A stretch of 11,399 bases of DNA, taken from assembly GCA_038046605.1 (NCBI GenBank), contig JBBSVW010000075.1, positions 1 to 11,399 on the forward strand. Reading direction: 5' to 3'. The notes under the pieces were generated by a model that did not search any database, had not been told where the DNA came from, and saw only the letters and a list, made by a program, of their open reading frames with translations. Source of the stretch: Candidatus Micrarchaeota archaeon (lineage in GTDB: Archaea > Micrarchaeota > Micrarchaeia > Norongarragalinales > SBBD01). Numbering within the stretch: the stretch's first letter is position 1; each line of letters starts with the position of its first letter. The translations under genes were made by a program, and so were the position numbers. Of this stretch, positions 633 through 9,113 are shown in pieces.

Positions 633-790
633 CGCCCTGGGCAGGATTTCCTTGCCTATAATTGGCGGAGCCGCAAAAGGCTTTCTTTGGCGGCGCCATC
701 GCCTTTCTTTCTCGAAAGAAAGGCAAGGCATTCGAACCTGCGACCTGCTGATTAACAGTCAGCCGCTCTAACCGGCTGAGCTACCAGGGC
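633..790 (-). tRNA. tRNA-Asn(GTT) with an 84-nt intron in the T-loop (59/60); exons 790-731 and 646-633; CCA not encoded
   Basis: Minus strand reads GCCCTGG TA GCTC AGCCGGTTA GAGC G GCTGA CTGTTAA TCAGC AGGTC GCAGG TTCGAA [intron] T CCTGC CCAGGGC G. All four stems pair perfectly, giving a 74-nt mature tRNA. Confidence 0.95.
647..730 (-). other. tRNA intron at 59/60 with relaxed BHB; internally structured; MITE/REP-like core
   Basis: Removal restores the TTCGAAT T-loop. Ends TGCCT...AGGCA pair. Perfect 10-bp hairpin at 701-724. The junction can slide by a few nt because AAT occurs at both ends. Confidence 0.85.
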
Positions 791-819
791 ATGAAGGCTC
801 TAGTGTTATTCCAATATAC

Positions 820-828
820 GTTTAAAAA
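820..828 (-). promoter_or_regulatory. Putative TATA box for tRNA-Asn
   Basis: TTTTTAAAC on the minus strand, about 30-38 nt upstream of tRNA position 1, in the intergenic gap. Confidence 0.45.
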
Positions 829-858
829 TCGTCGCAGATGGCGTTTTTCAAAGGCGAA

Positions 859-1506
859 TCAAGCAGAGCACTTGATTAGGGATGCCAGTTTGGAATCACC
901 GACAATCCCTTCGTATTTAGTGTCCTCGATCACAAGCGAAGGTGTGCTTGTAATGTTGTATTTTGTCGTGAGAATGCTTATTAGCCCCATCTCGCCTTTG
1001 TTTGGGAATGCAAAGATGCGCACATTTCCGCATTTATCCCTGAAATTGTCAAGGTATGCTGCCTGCGCATCACACTCGGGGCATGCCCTGCCTTCGGGAT
1101 AGAAATAAAGTATTGGCACAATGTCCTTTTTCCCGCAAAGCGATTCCAGCTGCCTCATGTATAGCCATAGCTCCAGGCTTTGGAGGATGTACTTATCCTT
1201 GGCCTCCTGGAGATTGGATAGGAGATTTGCCTGGGAGTATTGCTCCATCTGGTAAGCAAGGCTATTAGCCCTCTTGATTTGGTCCTTTGTTTGCTGCTCC
1301 AATGCAGGGCAGATGTCGGTTTTTTTTGACCCTTCCAGCTGCGAATAGAGGAGAAGGAGCCTAGCCATCTGGGAATCGCGCTCCATTTGCTCCAATTTCC
1401 CGGCAATTTCGGATTGCCTCCCATCCTCGATGCTTTTAACGGCGAAAAAATTGGCTATGAACACCAAGACTACAATTATCCCCGCCTTGTAAAAAACGCT
1501 CACCAT
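859..1506 (-). CDS. Membrane-anchored protein with helical region and C-terminal thioredoxin-like (CxxC) domain
   Basis: N-terminal hydrophobic helix, then ILYFY...CPECDAQ (CxxC) and YNITSTPSLVI (cis-Pro loop pattern of the thioredoxin fold). Start overlaps the GT2 stop (ATGGTGA). Confidence 0.8.
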   Translation of the reverse strand: MVSVFYKAGIIVVLVFIANFFAVKSIEDGRQSEIAGKLEQMERDSQMARLLLLYSQLEGSKKTDICPALEQQTKDQIKRANSLAYQMEQYSQANLLSNLQEAKDKYILQSLELWLYMRQLESLCGKKDIVPILYFYPEGRACPECDAQAAYLDNFRDKCGNVRIFAFPNKGEMGLISILTTKYNITSTPSLVIEDTKYEGIVGDSKLASLIKCSA

Positions 1507-2837
1507 TTTAGCTCACTGCTTGAAACTTCCTTTATGAAGCTTATGAAATAAATAATCGAGAGGAACATAGGATAGACCGTCATAAATAATAGTATGGGGG
1601 GAAGGTCAGAAAGCCCGATCCTTCTTTTGGTTATGCTAAAGCTCGTATAGACCACATAGCCCCATATCAGAAGTGTGGTGATGTAGAATATTGCCGCTGA
1701 TTGGAACCTGAATGCAAACGAGGAGATGATGCCAAATGCAACGGCGGGCGATTCAGGCGCTATTGCAAGCGCAACATAAAATAAACCCGCAAGCAGGGTC
1801 AGGTAAAGCTGCGCAAGCCTTGCGATCACTACGATGGATAGGGCCTGAATCAGGTAGGAAACCGGGAATACGAACCTGCCAAATGTGCCATAAGCCTTGT
1901 TGAACCAAAGTGAGAAGTATTTCTTTCCGTTGTAAATTGCGCCCCTAAACCACCTTATCCGCTGCTTGTAGAGTCTCATTAAAGTCCTTGGGACGCTTGT
2001 GAATGCGCGCGCTTCTGTTGTGGTAATGATCCTGTAGCTGTGTTTTCTGATGTTTAGCGCAATATCCATATCCTCGGTGATGTTGTCCTCGTCAAATCCG
2101 CCCACTTCAAATAGTATTGATTTGCGGTACATTGAAAGGGGGCCAGGAGTGATGAAGATGCTTTCGAGCTTGCCATAGCTTATCTGGGTAAAGCCATGCC
2201 CGACATAGTACTCCACTTCTTGAATGCGCTGCAAAAGGTTCCTTGGCCTGCTGACACTGACAAGCCCAATAACGGATGCGATTTCCTTGCCTGTGAAATG
2301 GCTGGCAAGGTGCGTCAAGGCATCAGGATGCACAAATGTGTCCGAATCTATTGTTGCGATCATTTCGCCCCTTGCCTTGGCAATTCCCAGGTTCAGGGAA
2401 GCTGCTTTTCCGATGTTGCGGCGCGTGCGGATTATCCTTATGCCCCTGAATTTACGCAAGATCTTGTAGCTATCATCGGTGCTCGCATCCTCTATGGCGA
2501 TAATCTCGATTTTTCCGTCGTATTTGAGGGCCTTTATTGCCCTAAGCGATTCCTCAAGCGTTTTTGCGCTGTTGTAAATGGGAACAAGCACAGTAACAAA
2601 TGGCCGTTTGCCCGTCGTTTTTACCTCATGGTCCTCCTTGAATTTGAGTATGTAAACAAGCTCAACGTATAGGAAAAAGAAGTTCACGGATAGGAATATT
2701 GCATAGTAGGGCAAAAGCTCGAAAATGAAATAGAATATCGCGCCAAGCGCGCAAACTGATGCGATTGCCGCAAATAGCGATCCACTGCTGCCTTTCCTGA
2801 ATACCCTCCTGCCGGCGTTCATTTGCATCCCAAGCAT
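1500..2837 (-). CDS. Processive GT2 glycosyltransferase (cellulose synthase/PgaC-IcaA-like), membrane-integrated
   Basis: VPIYN, EDASTD, GKAASLN, DSD (DxD), TEDMD and QRIRW (D,D,D,QxxRW signature), with N- and C-terminal TM helices. The start could be a slightly later Met (2828 or 2822). Confidence 0.92.
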   Translation of the reverse strand: MLGMQMNAGRRVFRKGSSGSLFAAIASVCALGAIFYFIFELLPYYAIFLSVNFFFLYVELVYILKFKEDHEVKTTGKRPFVTVLVPIYNSAKTLEESLRAIKALKYDGKIEIIAIEDASTDDSYKILRKFRGIRIIRTRRNIGKAASLNLGIAKARGEMIATIDSDTFVHPDALTHLASHFTGKEIASVIGLVSVSRPRNLLQRIQEVEYYVGHGFTQISYGKLESIFITPGPLSMYRKSILFEVGGFDEDNITEDMDIALNIRKHSYRIITTTEARAFTSVPRTLMRLYKQRIRWFRGAIYNGKKYFSLWFNKAYGTFGRFVFPVSYLIQALSIVVIARLAQLYLTLLAGLFYVALAIAPESPAVAFGIISSFAFRFQSAAIFYITTLLIWGYVVYTSFSITKRRIGLSDLPPILLFMTVYPMFLSIIYFISFIKEVSSSELKW

Positions 2838-2850
2838 CCCCTCGGCAGCT

Positions 2851-2858
2851 ATTTATAC
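2851..2858. promoter_or_regulatory. TATA-like box in the 44-bp divergent gap
   Basis: ATTTATAC on + (GTATAAAT on -), about 24 nt before ATG 2882, consistent with a leaderless transcript. Confidence 0.4.
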
Positions 2859-2881
2859 TTTTTTGGTTTTAACCCTTTCCT

Positions 2882-4318
2882 ATGAGGCAATATTTGGCGG
2901 TGCAGGTGGGGGTTTGCTCCCTTGCGCTTTTTGGGATGATTTTGTCCCCTACCTTAATGGAATTCCTCTCATCACTAATCCGCCTTCTCACCGAAGGCAA
3001 CACTTTTGGCAAGCATTTTGTGTTCCTTGGGTTTTTCATATTTGTTGGTTTGCTTAAGCTGGGATTGGGAAATAAGGATATTCCTTTCATTTCGATGCTT
3101 AGCATTAATCGGGTCAAAACGGCTCTTTTTGCGCTTATTGCAATTGGCTTTGCCTTCAATATCATTGCAAACCTGCTAATCTTCCAGGAATACGGCGCCC
3201 CGATCAATGGGTATGTTGCCCATGTGGCAAATTGCGGGATATCGACATGTTGGGAGGCAACCTATATCCAGCACTCCCATTCCCTAAAACCCGCAATCAA
3301 TTTCATTGACCAAAAGCTCCATCTTAACCTGGGTTCGATGGTTGATACCGGACGGCCAATGTCTGAAATCGAGCCCAACGTGGATGCGGTTTCAATCATT
3401 GCGCTTGCAATCCTTGCCTTAATTTTTACCATTTCCATCATTTTGGCCATAAAGGAGGAAAATTACGCAAATCTGCTTATTCTCCAATTGGCATCCATAG
3501 TATCCATCATTTCCGTGCTTGACGGGGGACTTTTCACGGTTGCGGGGATCAATGCAATAGTGTTGCTTGCGCTTTATTGGGGGAATGGGGAAAAAACGGA
3601 TATGGATTGGAAGTTTTACGCGTTTCTTCTTGCTTACGTTTATTTCATCGGTGCAATTGTTCCAAAACTTGTTGGAACAAACCTGGTTTTCCTTAGTTAT
3701 TTTGCACTGGCGGGAATTTTGATTTCGATTTTTATTTTGTATAAATCCAATCTCCCGAAATTTCCAAAATTCCTTGCCTACGCCTCAATTTTTTTATTGA
3801 TTTTTTCAGCCTGGCACTTGCATTCGCTTTTCAATTATGTCTACAATGGGGAAAATGCAGGCCCTTCCGGCAAGGCGATAATTTATGGCTTTCCTGATGA
3901 TTTGGCAACGGACAATGCGCTTTCCAATTTTAACGCCCCGAAATTATCCTCTTTTTACAGGTATGGCTGGTATGCGGCAGTGGTGCCATCAAAAGAATTG
4001 GCTGTAAATGGGCTTGTGAAATCCCTAAAGCCAAGTGTTTCCCCAAAGGGATATTTCCTTGGGGAGGCGGATAGCCAGGAGGACAGGGAAGGACTGGTAA
4101 CTGTGATCCTTAGGGGGAATGCAGCTCCAGTTGAAATTTCAACCGTATCGTTTCGGGCAATTGGGTATGCGATTTGCGAAAAAAGGTGTGTAATTCGGGG
4201 AACAACTTCCCTTTATGCCAATCATCTTGCCCTCGAGATTTCAAGCTTCCTTTATTCAAAAGGCTATGATGCGGTTGTGATTACCCCTGTAATGTGGGAT
4301 TATGGAAAAGTGAACTAG
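2882..4318 (+). CDS. Polytopic membrane protein of unknown function with C-terminal soluble domain
   Basis: 478-aa ORF with roughly 9-10 hydrophobic segments, a large loop containing HSHSLKP, and a hydrophilic C-terminal third. Confidence 0.85.
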   Translation: MRQYLAVQVGVCSLALFGMILSPTLMEFLSSLIRLLTEGNTFGKHFVFLGFFIFVGLLKLGLGNKDIPFISMLSINRVKTALFALIAIGFAFNIIANLLIFQEYGAPINGYVAHVANCGISTCWEATYIQHSHSLKPAINFIDQKLHLNLGSMVDTGRPMSEIEPNVDAVSIIALAILALIFTISIILAIKEENYANLLILQLASIVSIISVLDGGLFTVAGINAIVLLALYWGNGEKTDMDWKFYAFLLAYVYFIGAIVPKLVGTNLVFLSYFALAGILISIFILYKSNLPKFPKFLAYASIFLLIFSAWHLHSLFNYVYNGENAGPSGKAIIYGFPDDLATDNALSNFNAPKLSSFYRYGWYAAVVPSKELAVNGLVKSLKPSVSPKGYFLGEADSQEDREGLVTVILRGNAAPVEISTVSFRAIGYAICEKRCVIRGTTSLYANHLALEISSFLYSKGYDAVVITPVMWDYGKVN

Positions 4319-4395
4319 TTTCTAAGGCGAATGGAATTTAAGGTGTATTGCGGGGTTTGGACCTTGTTTCATATTTTGCTTTTTTTCCATCCTAA

Positions 4396-5685
4396 TTAGA
4401 GCACTTTCCTGTACGCATCCATCAGCTTATCCGTGCTCTTCTCAATGGAAAATCCAAGCGCAGTCCTCCTTGCATTCTGCTGTATCCTGCGCTTTGCGCC
4501 ATCGCGGAGTTGGAGCCCCTTAAGCATCTTTTCCGCGCATTCCTCCTCGTCAAATGGCTTGAACAGGAAGCCGTTCCTTCCCTCCTGAAGCAGTTCCGGA
4601 ATCGCAAGGCTATTTGCGCCAACGCAAACACGTTCGCATGCCATTGCCTCGAGCAGGGCGAGCCCCTGGGTTTCAAAAGTGCTGGCGGTTGCAAACACAT
4701 CGGCTGCGCAGTAAAAAAACGGCACCTCGAATTCCTTCACGAAGCCCGTGAAAATTATCTCCTTTTCCAAACCCAGCTTTTTGGCCAATTTCATGTACTT
4801 CGATTTGGCAGGCCCATCGCCCTGGATGATGAATTTGGCCTCCTGGCTTTTCCGAAGCATTGCAAATGCCTTGATGAGGACTTCCACATTCTTTTCCTCG
4901 GATAGCCTTCCTGCCGTCACTATGAGTTTTTCGTGCCTTTGTATCCCAAGTAGCTCCCTTACAATGTTCGGGTCGTATTTTGCGGAAAATTTGGAGGTAT
5001 TGGTGCCATTTGGGACAACTGCCGTGTTCCCTATGCCATTCTTGTTCAATAGTTTTTCAATCACATGTGATGGGGCGGTTACCAAATCAAAGGGCGAATA
5101 GAACTGCTTTATTGTGCCCCATGCAAATGCGGAAAAAAGTTTCTTCCCAATGAAGTTTTTTGTGATATAGGAGGGGGCTTTAGGCATCATGGTATGGAAT
5201 GTGCCAATCAGGGGAAGGTTCAGCGCCTTGGCGCTTGCAATAGCGGCAACCCCCATGGACGCAATTGCGTGTGAATGGACGAGGTCGATTTTGTGCTTTT
5301 GCGCAACCCTTATGGAATTTAGCGGGAATATCGCTAGCTTGTATTGTGGGTATGGCGGAAAAACCAGTGAATCAAAAAAGAACGTTTTGGGATTGCCGTA
5401 TTCCCTCTTCTCATTGGCCGTGCCTGAAGTGAAAATGAATACCTCATCGCCCCTTTTTTCCAATTCGCCCTTGTAGCCTATCATGGCGTTGACAACGCCA
5501 TCCACGTTGGGCAGGTAGGTATCCGTGTAAAAGCCGATTTTCAGGTTGGATTTGCCATCCCATTTTTTCCTATCCGGCCTAAGCCTGAATTTATGGATCG
5601 CCTTCATGAGATCGAGCTTTCTTAGGTTGATTTGCATATTCGGAATTTTTAATTGTGCCATATTTGACGCCAATTGTATTTGCAC
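4396..5685 (-). CDS. GT4 family (GT-B) glycosyltransferase, 1,2-diacylglycerol 3-glucosyltransferase-like
   Basis: FYTDTYLPNVDGVV, TFHT, GRLSEEKN, GDGP and ETQGLALLEAMA (Ex7E). The true start is probably an internal Met (5661, 5637 or 5607) rather than GTG 5685. Confidence 0.92.
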   Translation of the reverse strand: MQIQLASNMAQLKIPNMQINLRKLDLMKAIHKFRLRPDRKKWDGKSNLKIGFYTDTYLPNVDGVVNAMIGYKGELEKRGDEVFIFTSGTANEKREYGNPKTFFFDSLVFPPYPQYKLAIFPLNSIRVAQKHKIDLVHSHAIASMGVAAIASAKALNLPLIGTFHTMMPKAPSYITKNFIGKKLFSAFAWGTIKQFYSPFDLVTAPSHVIEKLLNKNGIGNTAVVPNGTNTSKFSAKYDPNIVRELLGIQRHEKLIVTAGRLSEEKNVEVLIKAFAMLRKSQEAKFIIQGDGPAKSKYMKLAKKLGLEKEIIFTGFVKEFEVPFFYCAADVFATASTFETQGLALLEAMACERVCVGANSLAIPELLQEGRNGFLFKPFDEEECAEKMLKGLQLRDGAKRRIQQNARRTALGFSIEKSTDKLMDAYRKVL

Positions 5686-5750
5686 TATGTATGAATTGGA
5701 ATTGGTAGGGCATTGTTCCTGATCAATTCATCCTAATCCATTGCGCTTTC

Positions 5751-6857
5751 TCATCTTGTGATTTCAGCCATTTCAAAAACCTCGAGCAAATGTTTTTTTC
5801 CCTCGAAATGCCTCCGGGCCGGCTCGATGATTTTATTGAGCTCAAGGGCAACTGCGGCTTTTAGGTCCATTGCATGAAGGGTTTTTGCAAGGTAGGCCAA
5901 TTCCAGCTCGTCATAGCTTCCAAACTCCAAATCACCGCCATATTTGCTATCCCGGCTAATGGAGAATGTTTTTTTCTCATGGAAAATTATGTGCCTTGCA
6001 ATTTCGAGAACCGGATTGCCCTCTATTGCAGCCGGGCAGTACGCCTTCCTCATCTTCTCCGAAATTTCCTTTTCGGAATCATGGATGAAAATTGCCGAGG
6101 AGGGGAGTGATTTGCTCATCTTATTCTGTGCAACGATTTCCTCTTTTTCCGCAAGGCGCTCGCCGGCTGGCTCTATGAATTTCGAAAAGTCACGGCCATC
6201 TGAACTCTTGGGTTCAGTCAAGCCCGGAATCAGATGATGGTGCAATGCAATTGGTTTTTTTAGCTTCATCTTCGGGAAAACCTCGCGTGCAACCATGTGT
6301 ATTTTTCGCTGGTCCATTCCCGCATGCGCAACATCAACTCCCAGGTGCTTGATATCAATTCCCTGCATCGAAGGATAAAAGTACTGCGCAAGCTCAAGTG
6401 AATCGCGCTCGCTTCTTCCCATGATGGTTAGGCAGCGCGTTGCCCGGGCAAGTGTCATGTGCTTTGAAAAGGTGATCACATCCTTCCAATATTCGTCGTT
6501 TCCCTGATATAATTCAGTGCCGCGGACAATTTTTACGCCGGGGCAGAAGAATTTGAATGCCTCCTCGTAGTATTTCGAGGCGGTTTTGATTTTCTCCCAA
6601 TCGCCGGATAGCTTGTTGTTTATCACGGAATGCCAATCCGCAAGGAAAACCTGCGTCTTGAAGCCGGCCTTTGTGAGATCGTTGACCTTGAATCCATTGA
6701 TTAGAAGGCTTCCTAAATGCAGTTTTCCGGATATTTCAAGCCCAATGTAGTGCGACGGGTGGCTATTTGTGCCCAGTAATTCCCTTAATTCGTCCCTGGC
6801 AACAATTTCTTCACAAGGCGCCCTTTCTATTAGCGCCATTTTACCCTCAAGATCCAT
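5751..6857 (-). CDS. tyrS: Tyrosine--tRNA ligase (archaeal type)
   Basis: YIGLEISGKLHLGS (HIGH), LADWHS, YPSMQGIDI, GMDQRKIH, KMSKS, AYCP and LHAMDLK motifs. Confidence 0.97.
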   Translation of the reverse strand: MDLEGKMALIERAPCEEIVARDELRELLGTNSHPSHYIGLEISGKLHLGSLLINGFKVNDLTKAGFKTQVFLADWHSVINNKLSGDWEKIKTASKYYEEAFKFFCPGVKIVRGTELYQGNDEYWKDVITFSKHMTLARATRCLTIMGRSERDSLELAQYFYPSMQGIDIKHLGVDVAHAGMDQRKIHMVAREVFPKMKLKKPIALHHHLIPGLTEPKSSDGRDFSKFIEPAGERLAEKEEIVAQNKMSKSLPSSAIFIHDSEKEISEKMRKAYCPAAIEGNPVLEIARHIIFHEKKTFSISRDSKYGGDLEFGSYDELELAYLAKTLHAMDLKAAVALELNKIIEPARRHFEGKKHLLEVFEMAEITR

Positions 6858-6980
6858 TTTGCATCCCTAAATGTAATTTTTCGGGGCTTTTAATTGGTGC
6901 GCATGCGGTAAAAACAAAGAATTAGGGGGCAATTGACAATTCAAATATGCTTAGGGGCTAGTGCCCATTTGCGAAAATTC

Positions 6981-6986
6981 AAAAAA
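6981..6986 (-). terminator. Oligo-T tract after rps17e
   Basis: TTTTTT immediately after the TAG stop on the minus strand. Confidence 0.35.
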
Positions 6987-7196
6987 CTAGGCAGCTATTG
7001 GCGCTGGCGCATGCTGTTTCATTAGGACGGTTATCTCTCCGGCTAGCCTATTTAGCTCCACCTGGTTTTGGTTCATTATCCCAAGCTTCCGGAGCGATGC
7101 CTTGTTCTTGGAAAAATCCAGGCTAAAAAGGCTCGAATTTGCCTCGACCAGCTTGTGCGCTGCCACTTTAGTCACCCTTCCCTTTACTCTTCCCAT
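6987..7196 (-). CDS. rps17e: 30S ribosomal protein S17e (eS17)
   Basis: MGRVK..., FSLDFSKNK and NRLAGEIT match the eS17 pattern MGRVR...DF..NK...N.IAGYIT; 69 aa. Confidence 0.9.
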   Translation of the reverse strand: MGRVKGRVTKVAAHKLVEANSSLFSLDFSKNKASLRKLGIMNQNQVELNRLAGEITVLMKQHAPAPIAA

Positions 7197-7200
7197 TCAT

Positions 7201-7206
7201 ATCACC
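7201..7206 (-). promoter_or_regulatory. Shine-Dalgarno motif for rps17e
   Basis: GGTGAT on the minus strand, 4 nt before the ATG. Confidence 0.6.
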
Positions 7207-7227
7207 AATTTTTAAGCAATTTTCTAA

Positions 7228-7425
7228 TAGCCCCGGGCAGATTTTCGCGCCTTGCCCCTTTCTTTAAAAAAGAAAGGTGCGAACGGCTCCGCGCCAAAGA
7301 AATAATTTGATTTACGGATCAAAATGATATTTTTCTCAGAAGCGAAGCCGCCGAATTTAAAGGCATTTCGAACTGCCGTCTACAGGTCCAAAGCCTGCCA
7401 TGCTTGGCCGCTACACTACGGGGCT
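7228..7425 (-). tRNA. tRNA-Gln(TTG) with a 125-nt intron in the T-loop (59/60); exons 7425-7367 and 7241-7228; CCA not encoded
   Basis: Minus strand reads AGCCCCG TA GTGT AGCGGCCAA GCAT G GCAGG CTTTGGA CCTGT AGAC GGCAG TTCGAA [intron] T CTGCC CGGGGCT A. The 73-nt mature tRNA has the A1-U72 pair typical of archaeal tRNA-Gln. Confidence 0.95.
7242..7366 (-). other. tRNA intron at 59/60 with strict bulge-helix-bulge; MITE/REP-like core
   Basis: T-stem GGCAG/CTGCC, 3-nt bulge AAT, 4-bp helix TTCG/CGAA, 3-nt bulge AAA, intron helix TGCCTT/AAGGCG. Confidence 0.92.
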
Positions 7426-7451
7426 AGCCCTATTTTTCTGCATCCCTTCCT

Positions 7452-8102
7452 TTAAATGGCTTCCACTTTGCCCAATTTCCTGGCAAAAACAACCAAATTC
7501 TGCGATTTTTCAAGGGGAACCTTTTTGCCATCCTTTTCATAGAAGCTATCCATGATTTCAAAGCCCTTGCCTTCAAGCAAGCCTTCGAGCTCCCCTTTTT
7601 TGAAGAAATAGTAGTACCTGCCCCGGCCAATCCCTCCGGGCACCTTCCACTCGATGCTTGCCTCCTTTTTTCCCCCGGATTGGTTTTCCGACCAAACTGA
7701 AACGAAAAGAAGGCCGCCTTTTTTTAGGGTGCGGGAAAATTCCAAAATTGCTTGGGGCTGCTCCTTGGGAATTAGGTGGTGAAGGGCCGCTATGCAGGCG
7801 ATTTCATCGAAAAACGAGGCGGAAAACGGGATTTTTTGGATTTGACCATCGACGACGCATGCATTTTTTGCATCCGAGTCAAGAAGCCTTTGCCTTGCAT
7901 ATTTGAGCATCTCAAATGACGAATCGATGCCATATGCCTCCTTGCATCCCCTTGCGATTTCCACAAGGTTCCTGCCATTTCCGCAGCCGGCGTCCAGTGC
8001 CCGATCCCCGGGCTGGATTTTAGGGAGGAAGAATTTTAGCGCCGAAAATGGGGTTTTCCTGCTTTTTTCCCATTCGGAGGCGATTTCGTTGTATACTTGC
8101 AT
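7452..8102 (-). CDS. Class I SAM-dependent methyltransferase, Trm9/ALKBH8-like (putative tRNA cm5U34 methyltransferase)
   Basis: VYNEIA..W...R.TP, LDAGCGNG (motif I), IAALHHL, R.LKKGG...VSVW and RYYYFF..GELE parallel the Trm9/ALKBH8 methyltransferase motifs. Confidence 0.85.
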   Translation of the reverse strand: MQVYNEIASEWEKSRKTPFSALKFFLPKIQPGDRALDAGCGNGRNLVEIARGCKEAYGIDSSFEMLKYARQRLLDSDAKNACVVDGQIQKIPFSASFFDEIACIAALHHLIPKEQPQAILEFSRTLKKGGLLFVSVWSENQSGGKKEASIEWKVPGGIGRGRYYYFFKKGELEGLLEGKGFEIMDSFYEKDGKKVPLEKSQNLVVFARKLGKVEAI

Positions 8103-8151
8103 GCGATCATTCCTATAATGCGATTACATTTAAGATTTCCATTGCGGCCAA

Positions 8152-8714: not shown

Positions 8715-9113
8715 ATGGAAATTGGGGAATTGGAAAAGCTTGCCATGGTTTTGGAGGCCTTGGCGTTAAGCGGCGCCTACGGGATTATGGCAAAAAACAT
8801 AGGGGAGGGGAAAGCCGAAATCACGCATTATCTTTTCCCCAAATTTTTTCCCAACATCAAGCCTGCCATGAGCGCTAAGGAAGTTGGCGAAAATCCCGCA
8901 TATTTTGAGGCACTTTCAAAAATGAAAGCCGCAGGGTTCGAATTCGATACGGCCGATGCAAGTGGGAATTTTACCGGCCTTGCCAGATTGGTGGAAGTGC
9001 TGCCGTTTGCATTACAGGAAACCGAGCTTGCCGAAATCCGGAGAATAAAGGGTTTTGCGGCCCTCAATTATTTGATTGGCGTGCTGGATTCAAAAAATAT
9101 CCAGAAAATATAA
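8715..9113 (+). CDS. Hypothetical protein, 132 aa
   Basis: ATG-to-TAA ORF that fills the gap, with a TATA box at leaderless spacing. No motif recognised. Confidence 0.7.
   Translation: MEIGELEKLAMVLEALALSGAYGIMAKNIGEGKAEITHYLFPKFFPNIKPAMSAKEVGENPAYFEALSKMKAAGFEFDTADASGNFTGLARLVEVLPFALQETELAEIRRIKGFAALNYLIGVLDSKNIQKI

Follow-up and report, generated by a model that had tools for sequence, protein, structure and literature searches.

Can two tRNA introns be copies of one repeat that face opposite ways, and if so, how did they come to lie within their genes? The question is raised by a stretch of 11,399 nt from a Candidatus Micrarchaeota archaeon (JBBSVW010000075.1; hereafter the window), in which a tRNA-Asn and a tRNA-Gln gene are both interrupted in the T-loop. 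The window is contig C75 of a groundwater archaeal genome, G000, of 1.64 Mb in 106 contigs, estimated to be 90.7% complete. The original prediction, made from the letters of the window, held that the two introns were inverted copies of one element resembling a miniature inverted-repeat transposable element (MITE) or a repetitive extragenic palindrome (REP). The analysis confirmed that the Asn and Gln introns belong to a single multi-copy repeat family and face opposite ways. With a probability of roughly 60%, we read both as copies of a lineage-specific, non-coding and non-autonomous palindromic repeat acting at the DNA level, similar to MITEs or to REP doublets forming hairpins (REPINs), the ends of which supply the splicing helix either way round. 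Below, C numbers denote contigs of G000, L numbers denote fetched loci and X1–X3 denote sequencing runs.

Two introns in opposite orientation

ARAGORN reported no tRNA in the raw window. The Rfam tRNA model matched positions 722–784 (41.2 bits) and 7362–7418 (22.7 bits), both on the minus strand and both with the match ending within the T-loop. Deletion of positions 647–730 restored the canonical cloverleaf of a 75-nt tRNA-Asn(GTT) with an ARAGORN score of 124.4, and deletion of 7242–7366 restored that of tRNA-Gln(TTG) with a score of 119.1. Both minus-strand genes were interrupted after the T-loop sequence UUCGAA and thus carried 59/60 introns, at the coordinates originally proposed; the register of the introns is ambiguous by 1–3 nt because of repeated A/T. 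The 5′ exon of tRNA-Asn (731–790, tRNA positions 1–59) terminated in UUCGAA, and its 3′ exon (633–646) consisted of U60, the 3′ strands of the T-stem and acceptor stem, and the discriminator. The 5′ exon of tRNA-Gln, also terminating in UUCGAA, was located at 7367–7425 and its 3′ exon at 7228–7241. Elsewhere in the window, an Rfam match to SOX2OT at 8731–8839 was dismissed as spurious, since its 21.9 bits fell short of the gathering score of 70.

The Asn intron (84 nt, 647–730, minus strand) was a compact two-armed element of the S type in the sense orientation. Its full arm (677–729, minus strand; nhmmer match C75:727–677, E = 1.5e-10) was composed of the end GCCTTGCC, a TTTCTTT/AAAGAAA hairpin, a GCG-ATGGCGC-CGC box and an AAAGAAA tail. 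By sequence reading, a second arm without hairpin (CCTTGCC-TATAATT-GGCGGAGCCGC; 649–676, plus strand) faced the first, and it could be aligned to its counterpart in the Gln intron. The Asn intron was 89–96% identical over 48–85 nt to four other G000 loci (C73, C61, C57 and C26). The Gln intron (125 nt, 7242–7366, minus strand) contained its element in the antisense orientation. A full A-type arm ran forward on the plus strand at 7249–7302 (nhmmer match C75:7249–7307, E = 1.9e-16) and was 91–93% identical to six other copies in G000. It was followed by a spacer with a small palindrome (TTGATTTACGGATCAA; 7303–7330), of a type (TTGATT-NNNN-AATCAA) shared by other two-armed copies, and by a degenerate arm without hairpin at the 5′ end of the intron (UGCCUU-UAAAUUC-GGCGGCUUCGC; 7331–7365, minus strand).

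Local alignment of the sense strand of the Asn intron with the antisense strand of the Gln intron gave a score of 46, with 43 matches in 55 columns, and none of 2000 dinucleotide shuffles reached this score (maximum 39). The sense-to-sense alignment, in contrast, scored only 25, was confined to the palindromic hairpin and was equalled by 131 of the 2000 shuffles. A second collinear block, CCGCC-AA-TTATAGGCA, aligned at the far ends of the two introns. The non-palindromic 11-mer CGCCAAAGAAA, which had been taken to fix the orientation, was indeed present at 7292–7302 on the plus strand and as the reverse complement of 682–692. The introns also ended in the short inverted repeats that had been claimed for them, TGCCT...AGGCA and CGCCT...AGGCA.

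An error of assembly at either locus is excluded, since independent Logan contigs spanned both with 0–3 differences. The Asn locus was bridged in X1 (record 1, 72–1149) and X2 (record 10, 543–1669), and the Gln locus in X2 (record 14, 6571–8130) and in X3, from a second study (record 20, 7046–7393). No inversion or empty-site joints were found among the Logan contigs, a result of low weight as contigs lose rare variants. One low-depth (2) X1 contig carried 18 other letters in place of window positions 7248–7361, which is weak evidence that a co-occurring strain may have an allele with a short intron.

A family of palindromic arms

The repeat unit was an arm of approximately 50 nt, consisting of the end GCCTTGC, an AT-rich hairpin of 7–9 bp, a GCG-RTGGCKC-CGC box with the capacity to pair with that end, and a tail of AAAGAAA. 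In complete elements two arms faced each other across a small palindromic spacer (TTGATT-N-AATCAA), and both outer ends of the family therefore read GCCTTGC...GCAAGGC. The arms fell into the subfamilies A, A′, B, C and S. In an alignment of 78 distinct simple arms drawn from 135 loci, G1, C3–C7, GCG, GGC and CCGC were invariant and the loop box RTGGCKC was conserved. RNAalifold folded each arm into one long hairpin, with GCCUUGC paired back to GCG-N-GGC around the AT-rich stem. Double changes preserved pairing in six of the 14 pairs, and C2–G43 was replaced by A–U in three of the 78 arms. The hairpin loops often contained a nested two-hairpin insert, itself seen in both orientations. Such inserts were located in G000 at C79:7890–7925 and C93:9385–9420 and on C30, C27, C62, C70 and C89, and also at L083, L087 and L016.

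Further copies were sought in G000 with BLAST and an iterated nhmmer profile (E < 1e-3), supplemented by regular expressions. The profile gave 28 matches, two of which were reverse-strand matches on the same hairpin; the remaining 26 and one arm found by regular expression and BLAST made a total of 27. Arms were placed by their flanks, by running ARAGORN on every possible single deletion, by T-stem and acceptor matching, and by removal of second introns. Across the whole genome there were 24 tRNA matches at E ≤ 1, and many tRNAs had two or three introns. Eighteen of the 27 arms were located in introns of reconstructed tRNA genes, eight in sense and ten in antisense and thus in near-equal numbers. 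The intron site was mainly 59/60 in the T-loop, with one arm at 37/38 (tRNA-Thr, C23) and one in a D-loop (tRNA-Gly, C106). Five antisense arms lay just 3′ of an intact-looking tRNA 3′ end and were followed by an orphan copy of the segment from T-loop to 3′ end (C57 twice, C9, C68 and C89). Two sense arms (C61 and C70) lay between a stem resembling a T-arm and a 3′ end resembling that of a tRNA, with no whole tRNA reconstructed. The last two arms were unrelated to tRNA. One (C79:7832–7940) was located in the spacer between an rps24e-like and an rps27ae-like gene, beginning 2 nt past the stop codon of the former and upstream of the latter, and the other (C93:9321–9431) preceded the gene for prolyl-tRNA synthetase (proS). 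These gene names are readings of the translations, made without database search.

Heterotypic doublets occurred in both orders, A-then-B in tRNA-Ala (C1) and B-then-A on C27 and C62. This observation led us to reject the idea that the apparent inversion arose from a symmetric ancestor whose two sides had decayed unequally; the element has a genuine orientation.

The two sense arms beside tRNA-like 3′ ends (C61:9131–9240 and C70:12126–12290) were enclosed by CGGAG/CUCCG and the 3′ end (CGGGCCCA); their loop, UCCGA, was unusual. A search for the 5′ half of these modules gave no Rfam tRNA match and no tRNA body upstream, and they may be the 3′ halves of tRNAs that are split or heavily interrupted.

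Site turnover and duplicated gene ends

A degenerate end-plus-hairpin pattern was present in 13 of 41 related genomes, including all seven of the genus (6–17 matches each), and the reversed control gave none. The exact A/C-type pattern, searched against 185,579 species genomes, was found at 42 loci in 15 assemblies, of which 13 bore titles naming Candidatus Micrarchaeota or Norongarragalinales, the other two being titled simply "archaeon".

Comparison of orthologous loci showed the differences in presence and orientation that mobile copies had been expected to leave. The tRNA-Gln genes of G001 and G005 carried a C-type arm in sense and that of G000 an A-type arm in antisense, while no T-loop intron was present in G004, which kept the same downstream gene, nor in G007 and G009 of two other genera. 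This comparison omits G002, G003 and G006, as the probe detected no gene within the stretches fetched. Since the Gln intron of G000 belongs to another subfamily than those of G001 and G005, it reflects a replacement or a separate gain and not a flip in place; the suggestion that the core inverts within its site did not hold here. At the tRNA-Asn 59/60 site, five genomes had five different fillings: an S element (G000), a C-like arm (G001), a C+S doublet (G004), a B+A doublet (G005) and an unrelated second palindromic module (G003). In G006 this site was empty. Of six genomes examined, two (G000 and G006) had a filled rps24e–rps27ae spacer and the other four (G001, G003, G004 and G005) an empty one. 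Together with the proS locus described below, these sites displayed insertion polymorphism between relatives of the kind that marks MITEs. Other solo arms in relatives followed stop codons, several of them starting within 2 nt of the stop, with T-runs behind. The nested insert, too, differed in presence between the orthologous arms of G000 and G006 in the rps24e–rps27ae spacer.

In four of the seven genomes of the genus, the real start of proS followed a solo arm, and upstream of this arm lay a duplicate of the gene's ribosome-binding region together with its first 21–30 nt (C93:9306–9461 in G000, fetched as L041; also L042, L044 and L046). All 15 differences between the upstream and downstream copies in these four genomes were synonymous, and the upstream copies of the four species differed mutually at third codon positions only. 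The upstream copy therefore looks constrained as coding sequence, and the pattern, as judged from the sequences, is unlike the decay of a dead duplicate. A BHB (bulge–helix–bulge) intron in the proS mRNA was considered and rejected, since no strict motif restored the frame or joined both copies. A weak AU-rich BHB candidate was present at offset 8 in all four genomes; it would leave the conservation seen in the upstream copy unaccounted for. The same geometry of gene end, arm and duplicated gene end occurred at tRNA 3′ ends and, in G003, at the end of a protein gene (L085). Either the way in which arms insert or recurrent recombination of filled with empty alleles may have left this pattern.

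Duplicated ends also suggest a different origin, in which the elements are scars of larger mobile elements that integrated site-specifically into tRNA genes, left att duplications and were whittled down, the introns arising upon loss of the proximal duplicate. The five arms in arrays of tRNA, element and orphan T-loop-to-3′-end copy (C57:10075–10432, C9:22964–23190, C68:5948–6120 and C89:36690–36960) fit such an origin, as does the same geometry in G003 (L086 and L088), and intron gain through integration of a mobile element was proposed by Sugahara et al. (2012), according to the part of PMC3293823 consulted. No tyrosine integrase (PF00589) was matched in G000, however, the same kind of ~50-nt arm stands beside many different tRNAs and a protein gene, which is beyond a single att specificity, the duplicates vary from 13 to ~50 nt, and neither window intron is accompanied by a duplicated exon. 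We regard this origin as very unlikely. In the arrays on C68 and C89, the first tRNA copy itself required removal of a T-loop intron.

Two further repeats were observed near tRNA genes. A second repeat family (GACACC - GGGGGG loop CCCCCC - ... GCCTCTACCC) was located directly 3′ of tRNA ends, and after rps27ae in relatives (C9:23100–23165, C61:9241–9340 and C106:10600–10680; L053 and L055). In G003 it filled the tRNA-Asn 59/60 site instead of an arm element (L033). A further intron family, with a CTTTTTCTTT hairpin followed by CCCTTGGGAG, occupied D-loop and T-loop sites of other tRNAs (C68:5955–6017, C26:14262–14416, C27:21147–21231 and C57:9950–10050).

Proposed splicing and spread of the elements

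The proposal that the terminal repeats supply the intron helix of the BHB held well for tRNA-Gln, which formed a strict 3-4-3 motif, GGCAG UUCG AA|A UGCCUU ... AAGGCG CGAA AA|U CUGCC. Here helix h is the T-stem (5 bp), helix H is UUCG/CGAA (4 bp) and helix h′ is UGCCUU/AAGGCG (6 bp), formed from the two ends of the element, with the degenerate arm providing the UGCCUU strand. The tRNA-Phe intron formed an equally strict BHB from element ends at the correct splice sites. For tRNA-Asn the proposal stood in part, as its junction fitted only a relaxed motif. As the outer ends are complementary, it follows from the sequence that the same helix h′ forms in either orientation, and this identity is probably what makes both orientations tolerable. 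The splicing endonuclease EndA was found as a 395-aa frame on C20 with two tRNA_int_endo (PF01974) matches of 75.5 and 25.1 bits; its size and build appear to match the broad-specificity three-unit epsilon2 enzyme of ARMAN-2 (Candidatus Micrarchaeum acidiphilum), as far as that enzyme is described in the abstracts cited below. A second, internal strict BHB was observed in S-type elements (window 660–697, minus strand; C73, C26, C61 and C30), UGGCG CCGC CA|A AGAA ... UUUU GCGG CU|C CGCCA, and would excise a piece of 19–20 nt from inside the intron.

These features suggest how a DNA-level palindromic repeat could persist in tRNA genes. Copies would arrive or be exchanged as DNA, their complementary outer ends would form the intron-side helix h′ whichever way the element lies, and a broad-specificity three-unit EndA could then excise the element and leave the tRNA functional. 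The tRNA genes would be a safe haven within a gene-dense genome. Candidate agents of spread are a trans-acting enzyme, or template-switching between copies during replication or repair.

Searches for a partner enzyme with the same ends, which the original prediction had envisaged as an HUH transposase, a tyrosine recombinase or a DDE transposase, found none. The sole Y1_Tnp (HUH) gene of G000 was of the IS200 type (88.2 bits) and scored 21.8 bits with the model of REP-associated tyrosine transposases (RAYTs; NF047646), against a cut-off of 80. Y1_Tnp was present in two of the seven genomes of the genus, and two of the five genomes without it were assembled in as few as 7 and 20 contigs. The TnpA gene lay 1.2 kb from one arm (C9), and no arms were found at 11 other Y1 loci fetched. 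On these grounds a RAYT or HUH partner was considered unlikely and set aside. In G000, at its 90.7% completeness, no match was obtained for TnpB (PF07282), for tyrosine integrase (PF00589) or for reverse transcriptase (PF00078), and the inverted ends of its two DDE_Tnp_1 insertion sequences were unrelated to the arm ends. On C9 (23269–24698; L061:1769–3199), a free-standing LAGLIDADG/intein-like endonuclease frame (277 aa) and the IS200-type TnpA (148 aa) were located directly upstream of a tRNA gene carrying an arm array.

Several of the findings count against a mobile DNA repeat. No mobilising enzyme could be tied to the family, and among 36 end-like matches in G000 none faced another around a gene at a distance of 300–5000 bp. 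No fixed-length target-site duplication was observed: the flanks of the Asn and Gln introns had none, and duplicates elsewhere ranged from 13 to ~50 nt. The claim of a non-autonomous DNA element is supported in part, by the multi-copy family, both orientations and the intergenic copies, and fell short with respect to a transposase partner and a fixed target duplication. A strict 3-4-3 motif was present at the right place in only two of 16 introns tested, the other 14, including Asn, forming it only with irregular bulges, and the four nucleotides pairing to the T-loop (CGAA, UGAA or UGGA) were locus-specific and outside the repeat. Further, 25 of the 27 arms were in or beside tRNA or tRNA-like genes, far above what random insertion into non-coding DNA would give, which indicates a tRNA-specific process. 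We argue from the tRNA bias and the locus-specific 4 nt that the pattern is shaped by something specific to tRNA, or by strong selection once an element has arrived.

This same bias would be expected if the introns were transposed at the RNA level, as proposed for Thermoproteales: an excised, circular intron would re-enter precursor tRNAs or genes through the splicing machinery, followed by later DNA inversion across its ends. Many different tRNAs carry the element at the same 59/60 site, the inverted ends of two-armed copies (7–17 bp) could mediate inversion, and intron families shared between tRNAs are reported for Thermoproteales in the parts consulted of PMC4090602 and bioRxiv 10.64898/2026.10.13.758758. 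Against this stand the missing reverse transcriptase in G000, the copies in an intergenic spacer and before a protein gene, and an orientation ratio near 1:1 in place of rare flips. The Gln intron of G000 is also no inversion of the sense introns of G001 and G005, as its subfamily differs. Orientation independence argues against a purely RNA-based spread, and we consider the RNA route unlikely.

The remaining points against a mobile DNA repeat concern the arm itself. It is strand-asymmetric, with a U·G pair in all 78 aligned arms, and of the two strands the forward one gave the better fold in 76 of 87 arms (G·U pairs 100 versus 32 among 1410); since the copies share ancestry, this bias is a mere hint of a strand-specific step. 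Near-identical cores in different families of the order (L093) could likewise reflect function and not mobility. The arm might thus be a host-functional hairpin module, such as a protein-binding site or a signal for transcript end or processing, that is selected and moved by recombination, with its location in introns being secondary. In addition to the favoured strand and the conserved core, the invariant positions, the compensatory changes, the conserved RTGGCKC box, and the solo arms within 2 nt of stop codons with T-runs after them are consistent with such a function. Gain and loss at orthologous sites between sister species speaks against it, as do the two orientations relative to the host transcript, which are unexpected for an RNA signal, and the location of most copies in introns, where they are discarded; moreover, template-switch repair can maintain the complementarity of a palindrome without selection. 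A functional module as the primary explanation is, in our judgement, improbable.

The DNA-level palindromic repeat can be compared with known systems. Bacterial REPs and REPINs are short imperfect hairpins in many copies, often arranged as inverted doublets across a spacer, extragenic and often after stop codons, with subfamilies and RAYT transposases. The family described here shares the hairpin units, the inverted doublets (C1, C27 and C62), the subfamilies and the extragenic copies after stop codons but differs in that G000 has no RAYT and the majority of arms are inside tRNA genes. MITEs are small, non-coding and multi-copy, with terminal inverted repeats and presence/absence polymorphism. 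The GCCTTGC...GCAAGGC ends, the 27 arms and the insertion polymorphism resemble these, whereas neither a fixed target-site duplication nor an autonomous element sharing the ends was found. We class the family as one of putative BHB tRNA introns that behaves like a MITE/REPIN-type repeat without the transposase or target duplication of either class. Eukaryotic introners, to which PMC11782384 refers, are DNA transposons that create spliceosomal introns. By analogy, a DNA-level repeat would here also enter genes and be removed from RNA by a host splicing system, although splicing is by the protein-only BHB system of tRNA and no transposase was found.

Among archaea, intron families common to several tRNA genes were described for Thermoproteales (Fujishima et al. 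2010, as reviewed in PMC4090602). These families, with an unknown and suspected DNA-level mechanism of spread, are the closest likeness, and the accounts of them in the consulted parts of PMC4090602 and bioRxiv 10.64898/2026.10.13.758758 are silent on orientation. The present family differs in occurring in both orientations, as a two-armed palindrome with conserved outward ends, in intergenic positions and beside duplicated gene ends, and in a DPANN host. In Caldiarchaeum, a tRNA-Thr gene disrupted by a 1.8-kb recombinase-bearing insertion was linked to intron gain (Sugahara et al. 2012, PMC3293823, from the part consulted). Inserted DNA beside duplicated tRNA fragments and the tie between intron gain and a mobile element are common to both cases, while the inserts here are 50–250 nt long, gene-free and part of a family of 27 copies. 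ARMAN-2 belongs to the same phylum, going by record titles, and has tRNAs with non-canonical introns and EndA in one long frame; its abstracts mention neither a repeat family nor inversion (PMC3239211, PMC3488258). Full-text literature searches, together with the part of PMC11782384 consulted and leaving aside supplements and the 2010 Thermoproteales paper, returned no description of archaeal tRNA introns as inverted, MITE-like or orientation-free palindromic repeats. What is new here is that the orientation is inverted, that copies lie between genes and that the arms have the architecture described.

The gain of tRNA introns in archaea is an open question to which this repeat family is relevant. 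The mechanism of their transposition was called unknown in a 2014 review (PMC4090602, in the part consulted), and a 2026 preprint on Asgard archaea, which used the Thermoproteales families as a positive control, reported no general path of arrival for introns in the part consulted (bioRxiv 10.64898/2026.10.13.758758). Tentatively, and with slightly more doubt than confidence, we propose that the family may be an archaeal counterpart of the eukaryotic introners, an orientation-free DNA repeat that creates BHB introns and whose ends bring half of the splicing motif. If so, it would provide one concrete route for the arrival of archaeal tRNA introns, and the arrays of gene end, arm and duplicated gene end would be fresh insertion products that later become T-loop introns. 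One recognisable repeat appears as an intron in either orientation, stands alone between genes and provides alternative fillings of the same site in sister species, which makes the question of intron gain directly testable within one small clade.

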